Positions 43,264 to 56,366 are shown, counted from the first letter of the stretch. The stretch: 64,000 nt of DNA from Methanobacteriota archaeon (GCA_021372315.1 JAJFUT010000109.1:3759-67758), one strand, 5' to 3'. Made by a program: numbers and translations. Notes: generated from the letters alone by a model not told the origin.

Positions 43264-46200
43264 TCATTTATCAGCTTGTCGCTTGATCGCGACCTTGACA
43301 GCCTCTTCTATCCGGTCCAACGTCCTCTCCCTGTCAAGCGCCCAATCCCGGGACCACACACGGATGGTGTTCCAGCCGAGGTTCTTGAGAACGCCCTCGC
43401 GGACGATCTCCCTGTCCCGTGCGTTCCGACCGGCGGTGTACGACGTTCCGTCGCAGAGCACTCCGATGAGATACCTGCCCTTCTGGGCCGGGTCCATGAC
43501 CGCCACGTCGACCCTTATCGAGGACGAACCCACGTTCCTGGCGACCTGGTGCCCCCTCGCGGTGAGCGCCGACGCTATGGAACCTTCGAGCATAGACTTC
43601 GACAGAGCGATCTCCTGCGGCGTCATCGCCACCCTCCCGCCCTTGGACTCGGCATGGTCGAGGTAGTCCCTCAGAAGGACGACCCCTAGAGGTCCGTTCT
43701 GGCCTACCTGTATATCCCTGGACATGATCGAAGAGACGACCTTCACGGACCTTCTGGCCCTGGTGATCGCCACGTTCAGCCTCCGCGCGCCTCCTTCCTG
43801 GTTCAGCGGCCCGAAGTTGAGCGTCATCGTCCCGTTCCCGTCCTTGCCATACCCGACGGAGAAGATCATGACGTCCCTCTCATCGCCCTGCACGTTCTCC
43901 AGGTTCTTCACGAAGAACGGCTCCGAGCCTTCGTCGTCGAAGAGGTTCGCGAGCTCGGGCCGGTCCCGGCTCATGGCCTTCACCTTGTACTCAAGAACGT
44001 CCAGGACCGCGTCCTGTTGCGCCACGCTGAACGCCACGACGCCCAACGACATCTCGGGATAGGCAAGGTATTGATCGATCACGGTGTCAGCGACGATCGC
44101 CGCCTCGATCCTGTTATCTCTCCTTCCGCCCCTGTCGTACACTCCGTCCTTGACATGGATGAGCTCTATCCCCTCGCCCGGTCTCGACGGTTCGGCCGAA
44201 GGCGTCGTGATGAGCTTGCCGCCGTAGAGGTGGCGGTTGGAGAATGAGATGAGCGATTCCTGCCTCGACCTGTAATGCCATAAGAGCATCCTCTGCTTAA
44301 GCCCTATCGTCCCGCACTCGTCCAGAATGCTCTCGAGGTCCTCTAGCTCGTCCTCGTCGTCGGTCTCCGAGATGCGGTCGAAGAAACGCGTCGGGGGCAG
44401 CTGCCTGTTATCGCCCACGACCACGAGCTGTTTTCCTCTCAGTATGCAGCAGATCGCGTCCTCCGGGACGATCTGGGACGCCTCGTCGAAGATGACGACG
44501 TCGAACTGCACCTTCTCTGGCGGAGGGAGGAACTGGCTTACGGATATGGGGCTCATCATGAAGCAGGGCTTGGCGACGCCGAGCACCGTCGGGCTCCTAG
44601 CTATCATCTCCCTGACCGCAGGCCTCTTCTTGCTGCCCTTGAGCCCGATGAGATAGCCCTCCTCCTGCCTCCACCTCTCGTCGGCGTTCATCCTGTTGTT
44701 CTTGATCTTGTCGAAAAGGAGCTTCCTGAGCCTGGCCTTGGATATTTCCCTGGAGTCCTTGTCGAGCTGCTTGTACTTGGATATCCTGTCCATGTGCTCG
44801 GACGAGTTGAACCGGCCGAGCGCCTGCTCCTTCGCGTGCAGCTCCTGCAGCCACAGCTGGAAGAACCTCTTCCTGAACATCGGCTTCAGGTCCGATAGCG
44901 CGGGCTGACGCTTCAGCACCTCCTCGTAGAGCGAACCGAGGCCTTCGGCCCTGAGCATCGCCTCGGTCTCCCTGAACTCGACCCACTCAGCGAGCCTGGC
45001 CTTGGCATCGACGTGGCCCTTGGCGAACGTCCTCAATCTGATCATCTCGGACGACCCGTCGAACGCCCTGAGGTTGTCAACAAAGAGGTTCCGTGCCGAC
45101 CCGAGCGCGAGGTCCAGGTCCTTCATCGCCCTGAGCGCCGTCGGTCCGTTACCGACGACGTCCTCCCTGAGCTCAGTTCCCTCGGCGACTACCTTCACCC
45201 ATGAGCCATCGTATCCGGGCATGTCCATGAACGATTTCGTCCAGCGCAGGGCAGATATGACCGGTCCCACGTCCTTTCCCATGTCGCCGTTATATCGTCC
45301 GAACCATTCAACGCCGTTCTTCTCGACATCTGCCAGCAATGTTTTGGCGCGCTGGTATTTTCTTAGGGCGAGCACGTCCCTGCGCGCGTCCTTGAACCCG
45401 ACCTTGCCGGTCGTGGACAGCATGTTGATCGCCTTCATGTCGATCCTGTAGCTAGTTCTGAAGATCCTGAGAAAGCTGGTATATTGCTTCTCGAACCTGT
45501 CCGCATAGGCGGTGCCGTCGAAGTCGAGGAACTCCTTCTTGTATCTCGTCAGGATGTATGCCTCGTTCGTGTTCGATTCGTCCGTGGCCGTCAGGAGCTT
45601 CATCGCTATGTCTAGGAGCCTCTCGGCCTCCCCCTTGGCGAACCAGTTCCTTGGCGGGAGCGGCGACCCTCCTGCGACGGAGAGCAGCGCCGAGAACTTA
45701 CGCATGGAATCGAGGCTCTTCGGGACCTCCATTCCCGCCTTCGGGCAGAACGCCGAGGATATCGCCAGAAGCTTCTCGATCTCCTTGAACACATCCTCCA
45801 GCCTGACGATGAGCTCCGCCTGTTCGGCCGGTCCGAGGTTCTTCAGGTCGCAGTCCCTCCATGGGTGGATCTCCCTCTCGACGAGAACGGACCTCGATGA
45901 GATGAGCCTCTGTATCGCATGCTCGGCGCTGTCCATCCTCTCCCTCGTGAAAGTCAGCGTGCCAGGGAGGTCGAACACGATCTGAGGATAATCATGCAGC
46001 GAGGCCAGCTCGCCATAGGCATGATGGGCGCTCATCTCCATAGGGCCCTGGGGGGAATGGAGCATGGCGACGTAGGCGTTGAGCTCCTCCCTGACGGTCC
46101 GCAGATGATTGAGCTTGAACTCGTCCTGCCCCTCGGTCCTGTGATCGACCATCTCGAGCGGACGAAGCATGCTCTCCAGAACGTCCTGCTTCGTCGGGTT

Positions 46201-47316
46201 GCTGGAGTGCATCTCGAGGCAGAATTCGCCCAGGCCGCAGCTGTCGAGCCTTCTCTTCACGACCTCCAGGGCGGCCATCTTCTCCGCGACGAACAGGACG
46301 GACTTGCCCTTAGCTAAGGACTCCGCGATGATGTTCGCGATCGTCTGGCTCTTGCCAGTGCCCGGAGGCCCGATGAGCACGAGGTTCTCCCCGCGCTTGA
46401 CGGCCTCGACAGCCTCCTGCTGGCTCGAGTCCGCCTCCAATATCTGATAGGTAGTGATGGGATCGAGCTCCCCCCCGGCAGGAGCGGTCCCTTCCGGCGG
46501 GACCCGCGAGAGATCGCCGGCGAGCGCCCTGAGGAGAGGGTGCTGCCTGATGGCGTCGGTGTTGCTTCTCAGGTCCTTATAGATGACGACCTTGGAGAAC
46601 ATGAACAGTCCGAGCAGAGGCTTCCCGATCTGAACGACCCAGCCGTTCCTCTTCATCAAGATGGCGGCAAGCGAGTTCAGGTAATCCAGGATGCTGAACC
46701 CCTCCAGGTCATCGGGCAGGGGCGGCAGGTCGGTGTTCATCTCCTTCCTGACCTTGAGCGCGAGCGCAGGGTTGAGGACGATCTCCTCCCCTATCACCTC
46801 AATAGTGTAGGACGATATCATCCCTTTCCTCGAGAGCTTGACCGGGGCTAACAGCAGCGGGGCCATGTGGACCTCGTCCTTCTCGTCCTTCCAGTTCAGC
46901 GTTCCGAACGTGACGAAGAGGGCGTCGACGCCCCTTTCCCTCCTGATGAGATTGGACTTTGAACGGAGGTTCCTGAGCACCTTCTCGGTGTTGGGGTTGA
47001 GCGTCGACGGCACCTCTCTCCCGTTCAGCACCGTAACGTTGTTGGAGAGGTCGCATTCCCTTCCGCCTGAAGGGTCCTCCCTGAACTCGTCCCTGAACTT
47101 CTCGCAATGGAGGGAAAGTGTCTTCCGATCGAGAACGAGACCGTTGAAGATGTCCTTCATTTCGGAACCGTTGATGATTATCGTCGCGGACTTCGTCATC
47201 CTGTAGTTCAGGAGCTTGTTGCTCATGCTGAGGTCGATCAGCTTCGACCCCCAGTCCGCGATCTTCTCGTCCAAGGTCATCTTCGTCTGCGTCACTTTAT
47301 TCCCCCTGCTGGTCAT
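43264..47316 (-). CDS. DUF4011-type N-terminal domain + Upf1-like SF1 helicase + C-terminal Vsr/DUF559-like (REase-fold) domain
   Basis: 1350 aa. N-terminus LIDLSMSNKLLNYR and GVDALFVTFGTLNW...APLLLAPVKL. Walker A GPPGTGKSQT, Walker B VIFDEASQI, GDNRQLPPT, WHYRSRQESLISFSN, GDERDVMIFSVGYG, RRLNVAITRARR. Tail IRVDVAVMD...YLIGVLCDGTSY...ARDREIVREGVLKNLGWNTIRVWSRDW. Confidence 0.85.
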   Translation of the reverse strand: MTSRGNKVTQTKMTLDEKIADWGSKLIDLSMSNKLLNYRMTKSATIIINGSEMKDIFNGLVLDRKTLSLHCEKFRDEFREDPSGGRECDLSNNVTVLNGREVPSTLNPNTEKVLRNLRSKSNLIRRERGVDALFVTFGTLNWKDEKDEVHMAPLLLAPVKLSRKGMISSYTIEVIGEEIVLNPALALKVRKEMNTDLPPLPDDLEGFSILDYLNSLAAILMKRNGWVVQIGKPLLGLFMFSKVVIYKDLRSNTDAIRQHPLLRALAGDLSRVPPEGTAPAGGELDPITTYQILEADSSQQEAVEAVKRGENLVLIGPPGTGKSQTIANIIAESLAKGKSVLFVAEKMAALEVVKRRLDSCGLGEFCLEMHSSNPTKQDVLESMLRPLEMVDHRTEGQDEFKLNHLRTVREELNAYVAMLHSPQGPMEMSAHHAYGELASLHDYPQIVFDLPGTLTFTRERMDSAEHAIQRLISSRSVLVEREIHPWRDCDLKNLGPAEQAELIVRLEDVFKEIEKLLAISSAFCPKAGMEVPKSLDSMRKFSALLSVAGGSPLPPRNWFAKGEAERLLDIAMKLLTATDESNTNEAYILTRYKKEFLDFDGTAYADRFEKQYTSFLRIFRTSYRIDMKAINMLSTTGKVGFKDARRDVLALRKYQRAKTLLADVEKNGVEWFGRYNGDMGKDVGPVISALRWTKSFMDMPGYDGSWVKVVAEGTELREDVVGNGPTALRAMKDLDLALGSARNLFVDNLRAFDGSSEMIRLRTFAKGHVDAKARLAEWVEFRETEAMLRAEGLGSLYEEVLKRQPALSDLKPMFRKRFFQLWLQELHAKEQALGRFNSSEHMDRISKYKQLDKDSREISKARLRKLLFDKIKNNRMNADERWRQEEGYLIGLKGSKKRPAVREMIARSPTVLGVAKPCFMMSPISVSQFLPPPEKVQFDVVIFDEASQIVPEDAICCILRGKQLVVVGDNRQLPPTRFFDRISETDDEDELEDLESILDECGTIGLKQRMLLWHYRSRQESLISFSNRHLYGGKLITTPSAEPSRPGEGIELIHVKDGVYDRGGRRDNRIEAAIVADTVIDQYLAYPEMSLGVVAFSVAQQDAVLDVLEYKVKAMSRDRPELANLFDDEGSEPFFVKNLENVQGDERDVMIFSVGYGKDGNGTMTLNFGPLNQEGGARRLNVAITRARRSVKVVSSIMSRDIQVGQNGPLGVVLLRDYLDHAESKGGRVAMTPQEIALSKSMLEGSIASALTARGHQVARNVGSSSIRVDVAVMDPAQKGRYLIGVLCDGTSYTAGRNARDREIVREGVLKNLGWNTIRVWSRDWALDRERTLDRIEEAVKVAIKRQADK

Positions 47317-48645: not shown

Positions 48646-49182
48646 ATGGGTAGCTCGGCGTACATCCTCAGCGAGGTCGAGGCCGCGATCGAGAAGGTCG
48701 GCGACTCGAAGGTCGAAGAGATCGTCTCGGCGATCGTCTCGGCAAAGAAGATATTCATCTTCGGTGTCGGTCGTTCGGGGCTGGTCGGGCAATCCTTCGC
48801 CGTGCGCCTTGTCCAGATGGGGCTTGACGTCCATTTCGTCGGAGATATGACCACGCCGATAGTCGAAAAGGACGATCTTGTCATCATCATCTCGAACACT
48901 GGTGAGACCATGTCGGCCGTTCAGACGGCCAACATCGTCCGCCGCATAGGGGCGACGGTCCTGACGATCACATCATCAGTTCATTCAAAGCTTGCGATCG
49001 CTTCGACGATAGTCCTGGTCATCCCTCCGTTCAAGGACGAGAAGAGGAAACAGCTAGCACCGCTGGGAACTCTCTTCGAGGTCTCGACAGGGATAATATT
49101 GGACTCGCTGGTCCCGGTCATAATGCAGAAGCTGAACCTCACCGAGGCTTCCCTCAGAAAGAGGCACGCGATCTGGGTGTGA
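48646..49182 (+). CDS. hxlB: 6-phospho-3-hexuloisomerase (SIS domain)
   Basis: KIFIFGVGRSGLVGQSFAVRLVQMGLDVHFVGDMTTP, DLVIIISNTGET. ATG at 48646; an in-frame TTG at 48637 is the alternative start. Confidence 0.8.
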   Translation: MGSSAYILSEVEAAIEKVGDSKVEEIVSAIVSAKKIFIFGVGRSGLVGQSFAVRLVQMGLDVHFVGDMTTPIVEKDDLVIIISNTGETMSAVQTANIVRRIGATVLTITSSVHSKLAIASTIVLVIPPFKDEKRKQLAPLGTLFEVSTGIILDSLVPVIMQKLNLTEASLRKRHAIWV

Positions 49183-49195
49183 CTGTCAAATTAAA

Positions 49196-50007
49196 TCATC
49201 GGTCATCCAGCTCTTCAATGAACTTTTTGATCGTCACATAGCTCTCTGCTTGGTCCCTCTTTCTCTGTTCCTCATCATTTCCAGATAAGAACCTTCCAAC
49301 CCAAGAAGGGCCCTCGGCATCGATCGATCTGAATTTCTTCCTAATCTTTCACATGCCCAATTGCATGCTATGCTCATTTAGGAACGGTTTTACCTTCCGG
49401 CCTATTGCACCAGGATTCTCGAGACACTGCGAAACTACGGAGTAAATGTAATAATCATCTTTCTCCTTGTATCGTTCACTCAGCACTACTCCTTTCATTC
49501 CAATGCACCCCGTGATATCCAACACTTTTATTGTAGAGCTCGACACTCCATTACCTGGAAGAAACCATCGAAAATTCTTATCAAGATTATGTTGAAATGC
49601 AATATCGCATCCGTTTGCGGTCCTTGCAGGAGGTGTTCTTTGTATCACCCTATGTCTATGTTTCCCCGAATCAATTGACGGGCTTGTCAAAAATCTATAG
49701 AGATGGGATATACCACACCGTTTGATCTTGATACCACTTTCTTTTCGAAACTGAATGAGATCGTTTGTCCATCTTTCCCTCTACTCTCAGTATATCCTCG
49801 TTCCTGGACAAGATCGATAATTGTTGAATATTCATCGTCCCTCATCAGTTCTGGATTGACGGCTAGGTCAATATCGACGGATCCGACGTGGGTGATCCCT
49901 CCCCTGCCGAACTCCTCTATGAGGAAGAATGGTGCCCAACCCCCAACAAGCACCAGCGCTTCTCGATACGAACTCGGGGTCAATGACAATTCCAACAGGG
50001 CCGACAA
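49196..50007 (-). pseudogene. AbiEii/AbiGii-like nucleotidyltransferase toxin gene, broken by a frameshift and an in-frame stop
   Basis: ORF 49687..50007 carries LVLVGGWAPFF...HVGSVDIDLAV (NTase GG/GS...DxD) and ends ISIDF*. The +1 frame continues LTSPSIDSGKHRH...IKVLDITGCIGMKGVVLSERYKEKDDYYIY. The switch lies in an A5 run at 49689-49693. A TGA at 49346-49348 is followed by 49 more open in-frame codons, to 49199. Confidence 0.6.
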
Positions 50008-50060
50008 TGATGTCTCAGAAACACCAGTACCATAATCGGACGACGATCTTGGCTGCCCAA

Positions 50061-51101
50061 CTAAACTCCCAATATCTTCTCTCTGATGGCTTCAGCCTGC
50101 TCCCTTCCACGTTGAGGATAGTTGTTGAGGTCTAAGTAGAGCTGAATGTTGGACACTACTCTCACTCCATCTATCGATCGGGCGCTTCTCAGTATCCCAT
50201 CGTCCTTTGGTTCCATCAGATAGACATTGCCGCCAAATTCAACAGGCTCTAAACCCAGATTGTTTATTACAGCGGAAAAATCATTGCAGTACAAGTACAC
50301 ATCAACTGACCTCACAACTGGAAGGACCAACTGGGCAGCAGCTCCTAGGGTAAGAGCATAATCGTCCTCGATCTCCCTCAGCTTTGAAAATATTTGTTCA
50401 TAGCCTTTAAGAGGCGAATAATACCCGACGATCTTCTGATCATCATAGCTATATCTATCGGCCATCAGATCAAGTAAACCAGAAGGGTCTGAGATCCTTA
50501 TCGCGCCTCTCTTTTTATCAATGTACTTTTCAGCTTCGAGGCTATCCAGCACCTTATACACTTGAGCCAGGCTTACCGAGCAGTAGTTCGATAATTCCTG
50601 CATCGTCCATCTCTTCTCCGGATTCTCGAGCATGCTCCTGATGATCAAAGAACTCTTCAGAGAGAGCAGGTTCTTTTGTTTCCTCTCGATTTTATATTTG
50701 TTACTGCTACCCCACTGATTAATATATACATTATCATATTTTAAATAGATATTCCCTGACAGGTCAATGCACCCGATATTGGACCTTTCGCACAATCGTC
50801 TTCCTCGTTCGCTGATGAAAGGCGCAACCAGGACAGGATAATGGTCTGCCCTGGATCGATCGCCAATTCGACCCGCGAACTCAGCGATGGATCTAGGTTC
50901 CCCATTTGAGCGGAACTCGAGCAACAATTTCTTTTTCTGATTTCCGATCATGAAATTGGCGATTAGATAGGTCCTGCCATCCTTGCTCACATTATCTGGA
51001 TCTCTTTCCCATTTGATTATCCCTAAGTGGGACAGCAATGTTTCTACCTTTTTTTCATATTCCGTCTCTTTCATAATTTTCACTATATTACTAATATTCA
51101 C
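50061..51101 (-). CDS. AbiEi-like antitoxin/transcriptional regulator (central wHTH) with an extra N-terminal domain
   Basis: 346 aa. wHTH WTMQELSNYCSVSLAQVYKVLDSLEAEKYI. C-terminal part with VSNIQLYLDL, as in AbiEi-type proteins. It lies directly upstream of the NTase gene. The family assignment is from memory of the architecture, not a search. Confidence 0.5.
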   Translation of the reverse strand: MNISNIVKIMKETEYEKKVETLLSHLGIIKWERDPDNVSKDGRTYLIANFMIGNQKKKLLLEFRSNGEPRSIAEFAGRIGDRSRADHYPVLVAPFISERGRRLCERSNIGCIDLSGNIYLKYDNVYINQWGSSNKYKIERKQKNLLSLKSSLIIRSMLENPEKRWTMQELSNYCSVSLAQVYKVLDSLEAEKYIDKKRGAIRISDPSGLLDLMADRYSYDDQKIVGYYSPLKGYEQIFSKLREIEDDYALTLGAAAQLVLPVVRSVDVYLYCNDFSAVINNLGLEPVEFGGNVYLMEPKDDGILRSARSIDGVRVVSNIQLYLDLNNYPQRGREQAEAIREKILGV

Positions 51102-51167
51102 CGAGTGGTGAAAATAATATGGATGGTGAAAGTAAAAACTATTATCCCAACACTGTCTAGAAATAAT

Positions 51168-51812
51168 TCACTGTTCCGAGCGCTTCTTGCGCGCCATGAC
51201 GGTCTCCCCGTAATAGGGGTTCTGGTACTCGTCCCAATATATGGCGAAGGGCCTTTCTTCGACCGATCCTTCCTTCAATCTGAAGACGGCGATCTCGACG
51301 TTAACGGGGTCGATGACAAGGGCCGAATGGTATGGGCCGCTGAACATCTTCGTCTGAGTGTCAACATCGACCTGCGAAAGGAAGCAGCCATGCCCCGGGT
51401 GGGAATGGTACCATCCGACAATGACGTAGTTGAAGCAGGAGTCATCCATCGATTCGAAAAGCCTCTCGAATCCTTCACGATCGAACTTCACGCTGACAGA
51501 GGTGGCATCCAGGTCCGTCGTGGCCACGTCCCTTACCAGAGCGTAGGTCTTGCCGCCATCCTCATAGATGGAGCCGAGCAGAAAGCCCATGACCTCGACC
51601 ACATCGTCCTTCTTGCTAAGCGCATGATTGCGGATCCTCTCTTCGGCCGTCTTGGAGATGTAGAGCTCGAATGCGCCATCGCTCTCGGCGTAGGATCTCA
51701 TGGATTCTTCGGACAGCCACTTATGGGGCCTGCATCTTTCCTTTGGTGGTCTAGGCCTCTTCTCGACGGCGAGGTCCGTCGATGCAGTGATGATGGGCTT
51801 CCTCCTGATCAT
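51168..51812 (-). CDS. JAMM/MPN+ metalloprotease (Rpn11/JAB-like deubiquitylase candidate)
   Basis: An internal ATG at 51812 forms an ATGA overlap with the E2 stop. Glu in VVEVMGFLLG. JAMM motif HSHPGHGCFLSQVD (HxHx7SxxD). Confidence 0.85.
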   Translation of the reverse strand: MIRRKPIITASTDLAVEKRPRPPKERCRPHKWLSEESMRSYAESDGAFELYISKTAEERIRNHALSKKDDVVEVMGFLLGSIYEDGGKTYALVRDVATTDLDATSVSVKFDREGFERLFESMDDSCFNYVIVGWYHSHPGHGCFLSQVDVDTQTKMFSGPYHSALVIDPVNVEIAVFRLKEGSVEERPFAIYWDEYQNPYYGETVMARKKRSEQ

Positions 51813-52312
51813 CTTATCACCCTTGGCTGAACGGTCTTCGCCACAGGGGCCGCCTTCAGGCCCTCCTTGTTGAAATGTTCCGCGGCCATGGTGCAAGAAT
51901 CTGTGCCGAACGGACTGGAGCCGTTCGGAGATAGTAGGAGCGATTCGATACCTTTCAGGAAGCTGAGCAGCGAGGAGTTGAAGTTCCATTCGCTAAGAAG
52001 CCTCGTGCAGACGTGGCCTCCATCATCGGGCTGCATGATGTTGGGGTGGAAGATCGGCGTCTTCCAGATGACGAGAGGTTTTTCGAACGGATATTCTCGC
52101 CCGATGATCATCCTGAAGCTATGGGTGTATCGATAGGTCACCCTCCCGCCTTCGTATACCGGGCCAGGCAGATGATTGAACGTGATGTCGAGATCGAGCG
52201 GGAAGCTGTCCAGCCCTTCATCCGATATCTCGATGGTCGCCTTCGTGGCCAGCCGGCAGGCCGAGATCTCGTTCTTCAACCTTGACTTTAGGATCTCCTC
52301 CGGGAGCGTCAT
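51809..52312 (-). CDS. UBC-fold E2 ubiquitin-conjugating enzyme homologue
   Basis: 167 aa. YPFEKPLVIWKTPIFHPNIMQPDDGGHVCTRLLSEWNFNSSLLSFLKGIESLLLSPNGSSP. It has the HPN motif, a catalytic-position Cys, and the LLxxPNxxxP helix of eukaryotic E2s. Confidence 0.85.
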   Translation of the reverse strand: MTLPEEILKSRLKNEISACRLATKATIEISDEGLDSFPLDLDITFNHLPGPVYEGGRVTYRYTHSFRMIIGREYPFEKPLVIWKTPIFHPNIMQPDDGGHVCTRLLSEWNFNSSLLSFLKGIESLLLSPNGSSPFGTDSCTMAAEHFNKEGLKAAPVAKTVQPRVIR

Positions 52313-52545
52313 GCACCGCCCTCGGGGTCGGGGATGAGCTCAAGTTCATCATTATCGGATATCCCGGCCTCGGTCACGGTCTGCTGTCCTCTCAACAGCT
52401 TCTTCCCCTTCCTGATGACGTAAGCTCCCTCTTCCTTGTTCCAGAAAGAAGCCGCGCCTTCGATGATCTCCTGGACCGTGTTATCGGCCTCAAGTTCCAT
52501 GTCGACCGTTCCACCGGTCTCAGCGTTCCTGATCTTCAACTTCAT
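52309..52545 (-). CDS. ubiquitin-like beta-grasp protein ending -Gly-Gly-Ala
   Basis: 78 aa, MKLKIRNAETGGTVDMELEADNTVQEIIEG...ELELIPDPEGGA*. The length and hydrophobic pattern resemble ubiquitin. A diglycine lies one residue from the C-terminus. Confidence 0.8.
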   Translation of the reverse strand: MKLKIRNAETGGTVDMELEADNTVQEIIEGAASFWNKEEGAYVIRKGKKLLRGQQTVTEAGISDNDELELIPDPEGGA

Positions 52546-52617
52546 CGACCCACATCTGAGGGGAAAAAACAGCTGCCCATTCTTAATCGTTTTCGATTAG
52601 AATCATATTATTGATAA

Positions 52618-53418
52618 TCATGACCGGTCGGGGTGGTTAGGGCAGGACGGGTCGATGGCCAGTTCATATTCCTCGCTGGTGCCGAGCAGGCCGTTGTAGA
52701 ACATGACGTTCTTGATGCATCTTTCCTTCTGTCCGGACAGGACCTTCAACCCTTCCCTGACCTGAACGGCAGCGATGATGCTGGTGGTAGTGATCTCCGC
52801 GGCCAATTTCCTCTCATGGAACACAACATCCGCGCCCGTGCAGCTGTACCGTTTCTCCAGGACCTTGAAATGGCTGCGGTTCATCGAGCATTGGATGCAC
52901 GGCGTTGATGGAGGAAGGACGACATGGACCTTTCCAGAGAACCCGTCGGTGCCTCCGTCGATGAATGGGACGCCAGCGTAATAGGAATGGGAGTTCACAT
53001 GCAGCCTCGCCGATACGTTGTCCAGGCATCCGAAGACAAGGTCGTATTCCTTGAACGTCTTCCAGTCAAGCTCCTCGACCCTTCCCACATGCGATCCGAA
53101 CCTCGCTTCGGGGTTCAGCTCCGCAGCCCTCTTCGCGACCACCTCGGCCTTCATGGCCTTAACGTCAGCGTCCTCATCGCGAAAGAACACGCATCTGTTC
53201 AGGTTCGATCGGACCACGTGGTCCATGTCTATCAGGAGGATATCCCTGAAACCCGATAGCACAAGGTTCTTTACAAGCTCATTTCCGAGCGCCCCTGCCC
53301 CCACCACCACGCATCTGGACCTTTCTATCTTGTCGACGTCGAGCCAGCCGATCCTTCTGGACCTCTCTAGCCGGTCCTCTTCCAGATCCCCAGGTCTGAT
53401 GCTGTCCTTCTGGTCCAT
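52618..53418 (-). CDS. ThiF/MoeB/UBA-type E1-like adenylyltransferase
   Basis: 266 aa. VVVGAGALGNELVKNL, DMDHVVRSNLNRC, CLDNVSARL, PPSTPCIQC, candidate catalytic Cys in RYSCTGAD. Confidence 0.85.
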   Translation of the reverse strand: MDQKDSIRPGDLEEDRLERSRRIGWLDVDKIERSRCVVVGAGALGNELVKNLVLSGFRDILLIDMDHVVRSNLNRCVFFRDEDADVKAMKAEVVAKRAAELNPEARFGSHVGRVEELDWKTFKEYDLVFGCLDNVSARLHVNSHSYYAGVPFIDGGTDGFSGKVHVVLPPSTPCIQCSMNRSHFKVLEKRYSCTGADVVFHERKLAAEITTTSIIAAVQVREGLKVLSGQKERCIKNVMFYNGLLGTSEEYELAIDPSCPNHPDRS

Positions 53419-53524: not shown

Positions 53525-54076
53525 CTACATCGTGTGATCGATCAGTATCCTGATGCCGATCAGGATGAGGACAAGGCCACCCACGATCTTGACCCTCTCG
53601 CCGAACATCGTTCCAAGCCTTGTTCCGAACATGAACCCCGCCAGGCAGAACGCGAAGGTCACCGATCCGATGACCAGGACCGGAACGAAGATCGAGGTAT
53701 CCAGGAACGCGAAGCTGAGACCGACCATCAGCGCATCTATGCTCGTGGCGACGGCCAGTAGCAGTGCCGCGGTCAGCGTGACATCCCCATCGTCATCATC
53801 ATCGCCCCTGATCGAATCGTAGATCATCTTGCCACCGATGATCCCCAGGAGGATGAACGCGACCCAATGGTCTATCCCCATGATGAGGTCCTTGAACCCT
53901 TGACCGGCGAGCCAGCCGAGAACCGGCATCAATGCCTGGAATCCCCCGAACAGAGCTGCCAGCATGATCCCGGTCCTTCGCCTGTTCTTCTTTACGGTGA
54001 TCCCTTTGGCGATCGAAACAGCGAACGCATCCATGGCCAACCCGATCGCGATAAGAAGAATCGTCAATATGTCCAT
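53525..54076 (-). CDS. mntP: manganese efflux pump
   Basis: 183 aa. Internal repeat with GLAMDAFAVSIAKG and TSIDALMVGLSF. Confidence 0.9.
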   Translation of the reverse strand: MDILTILLIAIGLAMDAFAVSIAKGITVKKNRRRTGIMLAALFGGFQALMPVLGWLAGQGFKDLIMGIDHWVAFILLGIIGGKMIYDSIRGDDDDDGDVTLTAALLLAVATSIDALMVGLSFAFLDTSIFVPVLVIGSVTFAFCLAGFMFGTRLGTMFGERVKIVGGLVLILIGIRILIDHTM

Positions 54077-54212: not shown

Positions 54213-54635
54213 TCATCTCCAGATATCCGGAGGAATGTACAACGTCTGGTAGTAGGGATAGATCACCAGAGCGTCCAATAGCACCATGATCGCCAACGCC
54301 CAGAGAAATATCCAGCTGCCGAGAGCGACAAATACGCCCATAAGAACCGTCACGAACGTGATGAGGACGATCGCGAACTCGTTCGCGACAACCCAGCCAG
54401 ACCTGTCATGCGTCTGGGTCCTTTTTCCATATTGATTAATTCCAGTGCTGTGGAGGAACTCGTCGTCCTTATGGTTGTCCACATGGTAGGTCGAAAACAA
54501 AAAGTTAAAATTCTTTTTCCAGGGCAGGCGAGCTAACCCAGACCGATATTCTTTGTCAAGGAACTCGCCGCATTCGTTGCACCGGTCTTCCTCATCGAAC
54601 GAGGTCGAACCGCAACGCGTGCATTGCTTGTCCAT
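54213..54635 (-). CDS. hypothetical Zn-ribbon + two-TM protein
   Basis: 140 aa. CTRCGS...CNECGE, then C-terminal TM helices. Confidence 0.5.
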   Translation of the reverse strand: MDKQCTRCGSTSFDEEDRCNECGEFLDKEYRSGLARLPWKKNFNFLFSTYHVDNHKDDEFLHSTGINQYGKRTQTHDRSGWVVANEFAIVLITFVTVLMGVFVALGSWIFLWALAIMVLLDALVIYPYYQTLYIPPDIWR

Positions 54636-54858: not shown

Positions 54859-55977
54859 ATGAACGATTTCAAGGTCACTCCATGGGAGGTCACGGGCGAC
54901 ATCGATTATGACGAGCTAATCGTCCGTTTCGGTACGAAGAGGATCGACGAGGAGCTGCTCCAGCGTTTCGCTTCCTATGGCCCTATACACCCCCTTCTCA
55001 GGCGCGGGATCGTTTATTCGCAGAGGGACATGGAGTTCATACTTGACCAGTACGAGAAGGGCAACAAGTTCTTCCTGTACACTGGCCGAGGGCCGTCGGG
55101 ACACATACACTTAGGCCATCTGATGCCATGGATATTCACCAAGTACATCCAGGACACCTTCGGCGCGAACCTGTACTTCCAGATGACCGACGACGAGAAG
55201 TTCCTGTTCAACGACGACCTATCGCTGAAACAGACCAAGGACATGGCCTACGAGAACGCGCTCGACGTCATCGCCCTAGGGTTCGATCAGAGGAGGACGA
55301 AGATCATCGTGGACACGGAGCTCATCAAAACGCTGTACCCGATGGCACTCGAAGTGGCCAAGAGGGTGACGTTCAGCACGGCCAAGGCCGTGTTCGGATT
55401 CGGCAACGACAACAACATCGGCGAGATATTCTACACCAGCGTCCAGGCGGCCCCCTGCTTCATCGAGAAATCATTGTATGGCAAGTGCACGCCGTGCCTC
55501 ATTCCCTGCGGCATCGATCAGGACGCGCACTTCCGGGTCGCAAGGGACGTCGCCCCGGCCCTCGGGTGCCCGAAACCAGCTCTCCTTCACACCAAGATGT
55601 TCCCCGGACTGACAGGAGGCGACAAGATGTCGTCGTCCGTGCCTGGAAGCACGATCTATACGACCGACTCGCCCAAGGAAGTCAGGAAGAAGATCGGCAA
55701 CGCGTTCACTGGCGGGGCGGTCACGGTCGAGGAACAGCGCAAGGACGGCGGCAAGCCAGAGGTCTGCGCGGTGTTCAAGTACAATTTCTACCTCTTCGAG
55801 CCGAACGACAAGGCGGTCGATGATCTGGCCGAGAGATGCAGGAAGGGAGAGGTCCTATGCGGGGAATGCAAGAAATTGCTGAGCGAGAGGATAGTACAGT
55901 TCCTCGAAGTGCATCAGCAGAAGAGGGAAGAGGCGAAGGACAAGGTGCACGACTTCATGCTGAAGGAAGAATGCTGA
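54859..55977 (+). CDS. trpS: tryptophan--tRNA ligase (archaeal/eukaryotic type)
   Basis: 372 aa. GRGPSGHIHLGHL (HIGH), KMSSS (KMSKS). A TATA-like CTTTTATTAAAG lies ~30 nt upstream. Confidence 0.9.
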   Translation: MNDFKVTPWEVTGDIDYDELIVRFGTKRIDEELLQRFASYGPIHPLLRRGIVYSQRDMEFILDQYEKGNKFFLYTGRGPSGHIHLGHLMPWIFTKYIQDTFGANLYFQMTDDEKFLFNDDLSLKQTKDMAYENALDVIALGFDQRRTKIIVDTELIKTLYPMALEVAKRVTFSTAKAVFGFGNDNNIGEIFYTSVQAAPCFIEKSLYGKCTPCLIPCGIDQDAHFRVARDVAPALGCPKPALLHTKMFPGLTGGDKMSSSVPGSTIYTTDSPKEVRKKIGNAFTGGAVTVEEQRKDGGKPEVCAVFKYNFYLFEPNDKAVDDLAERCRKGEVLCGECKKLLSERIVQFLEVHQQKREEAKDKVHDFMLKEEC

Positions 55978-56366
55978 ACGTTATCGTCCCGATAGGGGTC
56001 GTCCGCAACGGGATCAGCGTTTCGCAGGATTTCAGCGAGGTCATCTCAGAGATCGAGATATTCGAAGAGTTCAAGGAAGGGCTCTTCCGCCTTGACGAAT
56101 CGAAGGAGATCGTCGTTCTCTTCGTATTCGACCGGAACATAGGCAAGGGGCACAAGAAGGTCCTCCATCCGAAGGGGGACGAGTCCATACCCGTCGTCGG
56201 CGTGTTCGCCTCCCGCTCGCCGTTCAGGCCGAACCCGATCGGCGTGACGACGGTCGAGCTCATCTCCGTCAGGGACAATGTGCTTACGGTGAAAGGACTG
56301 GACGCGTTCGACGGGACCCCGGTCATCGACATCAAGCCAGCAGAACGCAGGGACGGCGGTAGGTAG
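55971..56366 (+). CDS. trmO: TrmO/TsaA-family tRNA methyltransferase
   Basis: MLNVIVPIGVVRN..., RSPFRPNPIG, LDAFDGTPVIDIKP. Its ATG overlaps the trpS stop (ATGCTGA). Confidence 0.85.
   Translation: MLNVIVPIGVVRNGISVSQDFSEVISEIEIFEEFKEGLFRLDESKEIVVLFVFDRNIGKGHKKVLHPKGDESIPVVGVFASRSPFRPNPIGVTTVELISVRDNVLTVKGLDAFDGTPVIDIKPAERRDGGR

Follow-up and report, generated by a model that had tools for sequence, protein, structure and literature searches.

A conserved E1-Ubl-E2-JAMM gene cassette that probably encodes a minimal ubiquitin-type conjugation system in the Thermoplasmatota

We describe a cassette of four genes in a 64-kb stretch of archaeal DNA (Methanobacteriota archaeon, GCA_021372315.1 JAJFUT010000109.1:3759-67758; hereafter the window, meaning the whole 64,000 nucleotides), which probably specifies a chromosomal, vertically inherited and minimal ubiquitin-type conjugation system of the Thermoplasmatota, in the Methanomassiliicoccales lineage. 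The cassette occupies positions 51168-53418 on the minus strand and consists of four co-directional genes in the order E1-Ubl-E2-JAMM, for an E1-like activating enzyme, a ubiquitin-fold modifier (Ubl), an E2 of the UBC fold and an Rpn11-like JAMM/MPN+ metalloprotease. A first-pass annotation of the window had proposed a eukaryote-style cassette of this composition, and the proposal is borne out, with strong or above-threshold Pfam matches for E1, E2 and JAMM and with the Ubl assigned by its predicted fold.

The open reading frame (ORF) listing contains all four genes, packed on one strand where they had been annotated: E1 at 52618-53418 (minus strand, 266 aa), Ubl at 52309-52545 (minus strand, 78 aa), E2 at 51809-52312 (minus strand, 167 aa) and JAMM at 51168-51812 (minus strand, 214 aa, of which about 45 form an N-terminal extension). 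The overlaps and the gap that had been noted between them can be read directly in the sequence. The Ubl stop and E2 start share the junction gcATGAcg, the E2 stop and JAMM start share agATGAtc, and E1 and Ubl are separated by a spacer of 72 nt (52546-52617). The mechanical ORF of JAMM extends back to 51989, but it is at 51812 that an ATG overlaps the E2 stop, and the coordinates given for JAMM start there. The GC profile is 0.53-0.57 across the cassette. The same layout recurs in the 80 related loci surveyed below, where the Ubl-E2 and E2-JAMM junctions are overlapping or nearly abutting in essentially all cases and an E1-Ubl spacer of roughly 30-125 nt is kept in almost all. Ubl, E2 and JAMM are translationally coupled via the ATGA overlaps.

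The E2 sequence contains all of the motifs that had been listed for it (YPFEKPLVIWKTPIFHPNI, GGHVC and LLLSPN). It matches UQ_con (PF00179) above threshold (E = 1.2e-14; 54.6 bits against a gathering score of 27), and 246 E2 chains in the PDB match it at E<0.01 in a phmmer search. The HPN motif at residues 89-91 (H89-P90-N91) and the putative catalytic C102 align to the HPN and active-site cysteine of E2-C/UbcH10 (2e2c, 8tar), with a 3-residue insertion between the two sites relative to E2-C. In an alignment of 19 diverse homologs, F88/H89/P90/N91, C102, W109 and P129/N130 are invariant; in the loop-4 YPF motif, which in UBC enzymes contributes to RING and HECT binding, Y74 is invariant and P75 nearly so. 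An AlphaFold2 (AF2) model built on this alignment (pLDDT 87, pTM 0.79) gave top 50 Foldseek matches in the PDB that were all eukaryotic E2s (probability 1.00, TM 0.54-0.74), including UBE2S, Cdc34, Ubc12, Ubc1, E2-C and Ubc9. Profile and structure searches alike place the product of 51809-52312 inside the UBC superfamily, with HPN and cysteine at the E2 catalytic positions, and support the claim of the first-pass annotation that this is a bona fide UBC enzyme.

The E1 has the ThiF fold with a single adenylation domain (PF00899, E = 2.9e-49), and the motifs GAGALGNE, SNLNR, PCIQC and YSCTG are present as annotated. Searched as a single sequence against the PDB, it had its best matches, of about 1e-27, in SAE2/UBA2, UBA1 and UBA3, each time in the active adenylation domain; MoeB scored 3e-15 and ThiF 2e-14. 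A family profile of 28 orthologs yielded UBA6, UBA7, UBA1, UBA3 and UBA2 at 1e-38 to 1e-35, followed by MoeB (9e-30), ThiF (1e-27), UBA5 (1e-22), MccB (5e-17) and BubCD (5e-10). NCBIfam scores were 111.5 bits for ThiF against a curated cut-off of 275, 92.9 against 266 for MoeB and 80.6 against 450 for UbaA. By these matches the adenylation domain is closest to those of the canonical eukaryotic UBA1/2/3/6/7.

The architecture of the E1 is reduced: it is missing a second, inactive adenylation domain, the Cys domain insertion and the ubiquitin-fold domain (UFD) at the C terminus. The protein terminates 4 residues past its last Zn ligand (H262 of 266), and its orthologs, of 254-281 aa, are without a conserved C-terminal domain. 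Invariant in the 28 orthologs are G42/A43/G45/N46/E47 of the GxGALGNE motif, D64, R75, K90, D133, a Zn site formed by C174-x2-C177 with C259-x2-H262, and C193 in an RxSCTG motif 16 residues past the first CxxC. In the alignment to SAE2, residues 178-207 stand in for the Cys domain of about 220 residues, which would make C193 a crossover-loop cysteine, presumably placed as in ThiF, UBA5 and ATG7. An invariant N-terminal arginine, R19, aligns approximately in the profile match with position 14 of MoeB, in that enzyme the arginine contributed by the partner subunit. This alignment would fit a homodimeric enzyme, and we infer that the E1 may be a MoeB-like homodimer.

The sequence scores of the Ubl are weak. 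Its match to ubiquitin (PF00240) is sub-threshold (E = 3.8e-4; 20.6 bits against a gathering score of 25.4), as are its other weak Pfam matches, to YukD and Rad60-SLD. A profile of 40 orthologs retrieved ubiquitin-type chains only from the PDB, with E-values of about 0.015-0.1 for single domains; the very low values obtained for polyubiquitin chains were set aside as an artifact of repeat summing. Because of these scores the assignment leans mainly on structure prediction. The AF2 model (pLDDT 92.5) is a beta-grasp of beta-beta-alpha-beta-beta-beta topology with ubiquitin, Caldiarchaeum ubiquitin, SUMO, NEDD8 and Hub1 as its top Foldseek matches in the PDB. Caldiarchaeum ubiquitin (6fnn_C) ranks second, with a TMq of 0.87 at 24% identity, and no MoaD, ThiS or SAMP occurs among the top 50. 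The predicted fold is that of a true ubiquitin-fold modifier.

The reading frame of the Ubl ends in PDPEGGA, in agreement with the 78 aa and GG-A terminus first reported. The C-terminal ELIPDPEGG that precedes the alanine is invariant or nearly so among orthologs, with I71 replaced by V in a few. About 45 of the 78 orthologs stop exactly at GG and the remainder carry 1-6 extra variable residues. In public records the gene is labeled 'hypothetical protein' and has no Pfam domain, with the consequence that automated annotation misses the system as a whole.

The JAMM product matches JAB (PF01398) well above threshold (E = 2.1e-14; 53.7 bits against a gathering score of 22.5) and Prok-JAB more poorly (7.6e-5). 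In the PDB it is closest to Rpn11 of yeast and human (1e-14 to 4e-13), followed by the Caldiarchaeum Rpn11 homolog (1.5e-12), CSN5 (4e-11) and, at about 1e-5, AMSH; chains of the archaeal JAMM1 type or from Bil/Cap are missing among the matches at E<0.001. Against the NCBIfam desampylase model it scored 28 bits for a cut-off of 130. The glutamate and HSHPGHGCFLSQVD noted earlier are both there, the upstream glutamate in EVMG. The protein carries the zinc-site motif E-x(n)-H-x-H-x7-S-x2-D, with E73, H136, S137, H138, S146 and D149 conserved in at least 97% of 68 orthologs. An N-terminal PP...HxW motif (P22/H30/W32), conserved to the same degree in these orthologs, is specific to the family. Since about 45 of the 78 Ubls are encoded ending in GG and JAMM is nevertheless present at 77 of the 80 loci, the protease must do more than trim precursors, and deconjugation rather than maturation is probably its main role.

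To place the cassette in its genomic context, we scanned one genome per GTDB species and compared the window proteins by tblastn with the best 80 of the loci found; the surveys of neighborhoods and of RING patterns covered about 16 kb around each of these 80. A relative of the E2 is encoded in at least 563 species-level genomes, and the best 80 are all from the Thermoplasmatota, several of them complete chromosomes. The 95 close database relatives of the E2 are all labeled Methanomassiliicoccales, Thermoplasmata or 'Euryarchaeota archaeon'. The window E2 is 100% identical to an NCBI protein from a metagenome-assembled genome (MAG) that is already named ubiquitin-conjugating enzyme E2, and the E2 of Methanomassiliicoccus luminyensis is 54% identical to it. 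Median identities of the four proteins were 50-65% across 66-80 other species-level genomes, and the conservation of the cassette, as measured on its sequences, is far beyond chance. An exhaustive HMMER search of 1.84 billion cluster representatives retrieved 722 relatives of the E2 at E<=1e-3, of which 57 reached E<=1e-10; with no more than 722 relatives at the looser threshold, the family is compact.

Gene order is strictly maintained. Beside the E2 we found Ubl at 78, JAMM at 77 and E1 at 68 of the 80 loci, always in the order E1-Ubl-E2-JAMM. On the JAMM side the neighbors are a SIS (HxlB-like) gene at 67 loci and an AP_endonuc_2-like gene at 64; on the E1 side they are the genes for tryptophanyl-tRNA synthetase (TrpRS) at 51, the alpha subunit of phenylalanyl-tRNA synthetase at 39 and TrmO at 32. 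JAMM and SIS have a gap of about zero between them in 43 of 67 loci; in 23 it is about 1.3 kb and holds a membrane protein. Between TrpRS and E1 lie anywhere from 70 bp to 6.8 kb, with clade-specific metabolic and membrane genes, and in six loci TrpRS directly abuts E1 (70-152 bp). The families in these variable gaps, as recognized from sequence, are membrane proteins and MttB-like methyltransferase, aminopeptidase-like and thioesterase-like proteins. Contigs of the M. luminyensis type repeat this arrangement, their precomputed Pfam labels reading tRNA-synt_1b, ThiF, an 85-aa protein without Pfam domain, UQ_con, JAB, SIS, AP_endonuc_2, an IS605 insertion and a DUF4011 helicase.

The cassette has also diverged together with its surroundings. 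Identity to the window is correlated between the proteins of the cassette and their flanking neighbors, namely TrpRS and the SIS and AP-endonuclease-like proteins (Spearman rho 0.37-0.87, with p<=3e-3 throughout), the range for E2 being compressed because the loci were selected by E2 similarity. Together, the conserved neighborhood and the co-divergence mark the cassette as a core chromosomal feature. No relatives were found among 72,556 plasmids (PLSDB), nor in a pattern-limited search of 2.9 million viral contigs (IMG/VR). A comparison of gene neighborhoods had been suggested with the first-pass annotation; in the 80 Thermoplasmatota loci the order of the cassette held, while the AbiE-like islet adjoining it in the window was without a counterpart. 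These patterns most likely reflect a cassette that is vertically inherited and of housekeeping type, and not a mobile or defense element.

No E1 was found nearby at 12 of the 80 loci. In one divergent Thermoplasmata lineage (L083, 7740-9077, plus strand) Ubl, E2 and JAMM stand together with a flavodoxin gene upstream and an S-adenosylhomocysteine hydrolase gene downstream, and no E1 within 8 kb. An 'uncultured archaeon' MAG (L045, 7405-8510, plus strand) has tandem E2 paralogs (170 aa and 172 aa) that each have HPN and cysteine and that adjoin a glutamine synthetase-like gene; no Ubl, JAMM or E1 occurs within about 7 kb of this pair. Gene fusions were also seen among the E2 relatives, all of them singletons from metagenomes. 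They include an in-frame fusion of a Ubl ending in PDPTGG to E2 (P0207), a fusion of E2 and JAMM with a beta-propeller (P0217), a fusion of E2 to a degenerate JAMM with a C-terminal Zn ribbon (P0202) and an E2 with a C-terminal Zn ribbon (P0203). In a further group of 223-232 aa (P0228, P0231, P0234 and P0245), a Ubl-like domain without GG is joined to an E2 that resembles the ubiquitin E2 variants (UEVs), with HPN kept and the catalytic cysteine lost. The natural Ubl-E2 and E2-JAMM fusions support a physical and functional link among Ubl, E2 and JAMM.

The spacer between E1 and Ubl contains a candidate promoter. In the window, an element resembling an archaeal transcription factor B recognition element (BRE) and TATA box (CGAAAACGATTAAGA) occupies 52581-52595 on the minus strand and so stands some 36-50 nt upstream of the ATG of Ubl. 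Among 78 orthologous loci, 37 have a GAAA-N(1-6)-TATA-like element at a distance of 28-44 nt upstream of the Ubl start, compared with about 6 expected from shuffled sequences, and 39 have one anywhere within 90 nt. The spacers align on a common GAAA-N-TTAA/TATA element, the center of which is mostly 36-42 nt upstream of the ATG. We interpret it as a putative BRE/TATA promoter for Ubl-E2-JAMM, separate from or additional to read-through from E1, which fits the occasional genomic separation of E1 from the other three genes. Many of the spacers (window, L001-L080) also have a conserved box, CTAAYTCTAAT or CTACAGGTAT, preceding the BRE/TATA-like element, and a regulator might bind to this box. In the window, the spacer contains a run of six T between the TATA-like element and the Ubl start.

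The components suggest a cycle of conjugation and removal. JAMM would trim the terminal alanine from the Ubl, where such a tail exists, and so expose PDPEGG. The E1, as a MoeB-like homodimer, would then use ATP to adenylate the terminal glycine of the Ubl and form a thioester on the crossover-loop Cys193, from which the Ubl would pass by transthiolation to Cys102 of the E2. Transfer to target lysines would follow by HPN-assisted aminolysis, whether unaided by any E3 or helped by one whose gene lies elsewhere, and JAMM would take the Ubl off its targets again. In Caldiarchaeum the E1/E2 pair auto-ubiquitylates without its RING protein, and the Rpn11 homolog both matures and deconjugates ubiquitin (PMC5654768). 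A second precedent for E3-less transfer is provided by Bil systems (PMC10557695).

No RING E3 is linked to the cassette. The consensus C-x2-C-x9-39-C-x1-3-[HC]-x2-3-[CH]-x2-C-x4-48-C-x2-C was absent from all six frames of the 64-kb window and of the 80 related loci. The earlier statement that the flanks hold no RING or Zn-finger candidate therefore stands for RING proteins and needs amending for Zn fingers, since a protein with a Zn ribbon and transmembrane (TM) helices, which is neither RING-like nor syntenic, is encoded at 54213-54635. It is the only small Cys-rich ORF near the cassette. As an E3 it was rejected on account of its four Cys ligands, of Pfam matches far below threshold and of the lack of a counterpart beside the 80 cassettes.

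Three other readings of the cassette were weighed. It could be part of a complete E1-E2-E3 system like that of Caldiarchaeum and the Asgard archaea, with an unlinked RING or other E3 that sets the choice of targets. The retained loop-4 YPF motif would suit this, as would the Zn ribbons fused to E2 or E2-JAMM in relatives (P0203, P0202), the Zn-ribbon membrane protein two genes away in the window, and a report of RING-containing proteins in one genome of a marine group II euryarchaeote (PMC4327156). The fused ribbons, however, have four ligands rather than the eight of a RING, the membrane protein has no counterpart beside any of the 80 cassettes, no conserved Cys-rich gene family occupies the variable gaps beside the cassette, and the RING pattern is missing throughout the surveyed DNA, so that we consider an unlinked E3 of this kind unlikely. 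A sulfur-carrier pathway of the MoaD/ThiS and MoeB/ThiF type, possibly with tagging as a side activity as in SAMP/UbaA and with E2 and JAMM as accessories, is the least credible of the three. The E1 does have the size and Zn-site layout of MoeB and ThiF, with NCBIfam matches at E = 1e-32 to 1e-22, and in the UbaA/SAMP system one E1 serves both sulfur transfer and conjugation (PMC5654768, PMC4571572). Yet its NCBIfam scores fall far short of the ThiF, MoeB and UbaA cut-offs, its profile prefers the E1s of ubiquitin, NEDD8 and SUMO, and the first places for the Ubl model go to ubiquitin, SUMO and NEDD8, with MoaD and ThiS absent from the top 50. Neither is there a rhodanese, MoaE or ThiG partner in the neighborhood, and the coupling to an intact UBC E2 in at least 78 of the 80 loci has no role in sulfur transfer. 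Profile, NCBIfam and fold matches thus agree that E1 and Ubl do not group with the sulfur carriers, a possibility that had been raised with the first-pass annotation.

The remaining reading is an antiviral conjugation system, of Bil or another type, in which the tag is put on virus proteins and the cassette lies in a defense island. The first-pass annotation had held such a role to be as plausible as a housekeeping one, an assessment that the data do not sustain; we regard the antiviral reading as highly improbable. The composition of Ubl, E2, JAB and E1 without E3 is that of Bil (PMC10557695), an AbiEi-like islet of low GC adjoins the cassette, a helicase that matches the anti-phage PDC-S37, ProA and Hhe families lies about 4 kb away, and there are weak PADLOC matches of E1 to CBASS E1-E2 and BilD and of JAMM to BilC. 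The gene order is nonetheless E1-Ubl-E2-JAMM in the window and at least 68 loci, not Ubl-E2-DUB-E1, and the E1 is a single domain of 266 aa instead of the inactive and active adenylation domains plus CYS (IAD+AAD+CYS) of about 450 aa. The BilD match (7e-5) covers 112 residues only, the best CBASS E1-E2 model reaches 3e-12, and for JAMM the values are 1.7e-5 for BilC and 9e-7 for the best JAB model in PADLOC, compared with 1e-27 and 1e-14 for E1 and JAMM against eukaryotic PDB chains, a rough comparison as the databases differ. Neither E2 nor Ubl has a PADLOC match, and the E2 matches UQ_con at 1e-14 and has a canonical HPN. Bil or Cap2 chains were absent from the 58 single-sequence E1 matches in the PDB (E<=1e-5), from the 39 JAMM matches and from the best 60 of 81 E1-profile matches, in which Citrobacter BubCD (5e-10) was the sole E1 of a bacterial conjugation system listed. 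The AbiE islet is missing from 80 of 80 related loci, JAMM directly abuts SIS in 43 of 67, and the cassette is fixed in one housekeeping neighborhood with which it co-diverges, whereas defense genes are patchy; none of its relatives was found on PLSDB plasmids or, in the pattern-limited search, on IMG/VR viral contigs.

Some observations weigh against the preferred reading of a vertically inherited, minimal conjugation system of housekeeping type. A housekeeping role is not proved by conserved synteny alone, and the helicase of the anti-phage ProA/Hhe-like family is itself part of the conserved neighborhood at 13 of the 80 loci. The E1 is without the UFD, the domain by which canonical E1s recruit their E2s, which leaves the route of transfer from E1 to E2 unexplained. 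The absence of an E3 refers to the window and to about 16 kb at each of 80 loci, with a pattern that misses divergent RINGs, U-boxes and non-RING ligases. The Ubl, finally, is below the Pfam gathering threshold for ubiquitin and is assigned mainly from its predicted structure.

An extension of the preferred reading, which we offer tentatively and with low confidence, is that the cassette represents an ancestral, E3-independent housekeeping ubiquitylation of the Thermoplasmatota. In this scenario a UFD-less homodimeric E1 of MoeB size, with its thioester cysteine in the crossover loop, would pass a true ubiquitin-fold tag to a canonical HPN-type UBC E2, the system would be a living intermediate between sulfur-carrier E1s and the eukaryotic cascade, and the PP...HxW motif of JAMM might couple it to an unfoldase or the proteasome. 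If so, the M. luminyensis lineage would give access to archaeal ubiquitylation in vivo outside the Aigarchaeota and Asgard archaea, which are uncultured or barely tractable.

The surroundings of the cassette in the window differ from those of its relatives on both sides. Between JAMM and the SIS/HxlB-like gene the GC content drops to 0.45-0.47 over 49000-51500, and this stretch contains a protein with AbiEi_2 and helix-turn-helix features at 50061-51101 (minus strand, 346 aa; AbiEi_2 23.1 bits, gathering score 21), so that the AT-rich AbiE-like islet described beside the cassette is indeed present. Next to it are two short ORFs on the minus strand, one at 49687-50007 with a nucleotidyltransferase-like GG...GSVDIDL motif and the other, which it abuts, at 49349-49690. 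Neither has a Pfam match even at E<=1, and none of the three genes has a tblastn match in any of the 80 related loci. On this distribution the islet (49349-51101) is a locally inserted element that may be a degraded AbiE toxin-antitoxin pair. On the other side of the cassette, between TrpRS and E1, are an MntP manganese exporter gene at 53525-54076 (minus strand) and the Zn-ribbon/TM protein gene at 54213-54635 (minus strand; 140 aa, N-terminal C-x2-C-x11-C-x2-C, C-terminal TM helices); these are also without tblastn matches in the 80 loci, and the pair is best read as a second local insertion.

Farther away, a DUF4011/AAA_11/AAA_12 helicase of 1350 aa is encoded at 43264-47316 (minus strand), about 4 kb from the cassette. 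It matches the anti-phage families PDC-S37 (PADLOC, 1187 bits), ProA (NCBIfam, 1154 bits for a cut-off of 1500) and Hhe. Its conservation at 13 of the 80 loci and on contigs of the M. luminyensis type is unusual for a defense gene. A TrmO/TsaA-like tRNA methyltransferase gene is found at 55836-56366 on the plus strand (TIGR00104, 115 bits). Its mechanical ORF shares about 140 nt with the 3' end of TrpRS; since the match to the family starts only at residue 50, translation probably begins farther downstream.

Parts of the cassette have appeared in earlier studies. Fort et al. 2015 (PMC4453063) found M. luminyensis MPN WP_019177758 and the Caldiarchaeum protein as the only archaeal Rpn11-like orthologs and did not describe the neighbors of the M. 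luminyensis protein. A 2023 preprint (10.1101/2023.07.25.550441) shows a 'Ca. Thermoplasmatota E2' clade deep in its tree of archaeal E2s and UEVs, and Grau-Bove et al. 2015 did not report the Thermoplasmatota cassette. In a literature search made mostly without subscription journals, we found no paper that describes or tests the operon as a system. Parts of the cassette are thus in databases and literature already, while the system as a whole appears uncharacterized.

To our knowledge, eukaryote-like ubiquitin cascades of archaea have been biochemically characterized only from the uncultured Caldiarchaeum, and they are discussed mainly for the Asgard archaea. The cassette shows that machinery of this kind also belongs to the conserved core genome of a large euryarchaeal lineage, one with a cultured, human-associated methanogen among its members. 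The form is pared down, the E1 having a single domain and no E3 being linked. It offers an experimentally accessible organism for asking what purpose archaeal ubiquitylation serves, a natural test of whether a UFD-less E1 can charge a UBC E2, and a data point on the order in which E2, E3 and the accessory domains of E1 joined the ubiquitin system.

The operons of Caldiarchaeum subterraneum and the Asgard archaea consist of ubiquitin, E1, E2, a small RING E3 and an adjacent Rpn11-like JAMM (PMC3082918, PMC5654768, PMC6043591). Common to these and the Thermoplasmatota cassette are a diglycine-ended ubiquitin-fold modifier, often with a short propeptide, a UBC E2 with HPN and cysteine, a eukaryote-like E1 adenylation domain, an adjacent Rpn11/CSN5-like JAMM and an operon-like arrangement. 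Unlike them, the cassette has no small RING gene in or near it, its genes are co-directional with JAMM last, and it is widespread and syntenic in a euryarchaeal lineage and present in a cultured one; the window E1, of 266 aa, also differs from the Cluster I/II E1s (PMC5654768) in lacking a ubiquitin-like domain at its C terminus. In its available passages, Fuchs 2018 (PMC6043591) describes a 'JAMM-3' group of prokaryotic JAMMs near Rpn11/CSN5, found in operons with homologs of ubiquitin, E1 and E2 and no E3. These passages of text and supplement name no taxa for the group, and the parts of the supplements of PMC5654768 and PMC6043591 that could be searched do not list Thermoplasmata, Euryarchaeota or Methanomassiliicoccus. 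The shared composition, with a JAMM that is nearer to Rpn11/CSN5 than other prokaryotic JAMMs are and poorly linked to other eukaryotic JAMMs (for the window protein, AMSH at about 1e-5), makes it likely that this E3-less group corresponds to the Thermoplasmatota cassette.

BilABCD systems (types I and II; PMC10557695) have the order Ubl-E2-DUB-E1, and their BilD has two adenylation domains and a CYS insertion. They resemble the cassette in having four components, no dedicated E3, a Ubl that often has a few residues past the glycine for the JAB protein to remove, and an E1 without UFD. The gene order and the single-domain E1 set the cassette apart, as does its E2, which has a canonical HPN where BilB uses Cys/His. 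BilABCD is moreover sporadic in defense islands, often with CapH/CapP, whereas the Thermoplasmatota cassette is fixed in a housekeeping neighborhood. With the SAMP/UbaA/HvJAMM1 system the cassette shares a small beta-grasp diglycine protein, a MoeB-sized single-domain E1, a tag-removing JAMM and a setting among chromosomal housekeeping genes. Its E1 and JAMM score far below the UbaA and desampylase cut-offs, its Ubl, E1 and JAMM are more eukaryote-like, and, unlike sampylation, which has no E2, the Thermoplasmatota cassette couples an intact UBC E2 to the Ubl.

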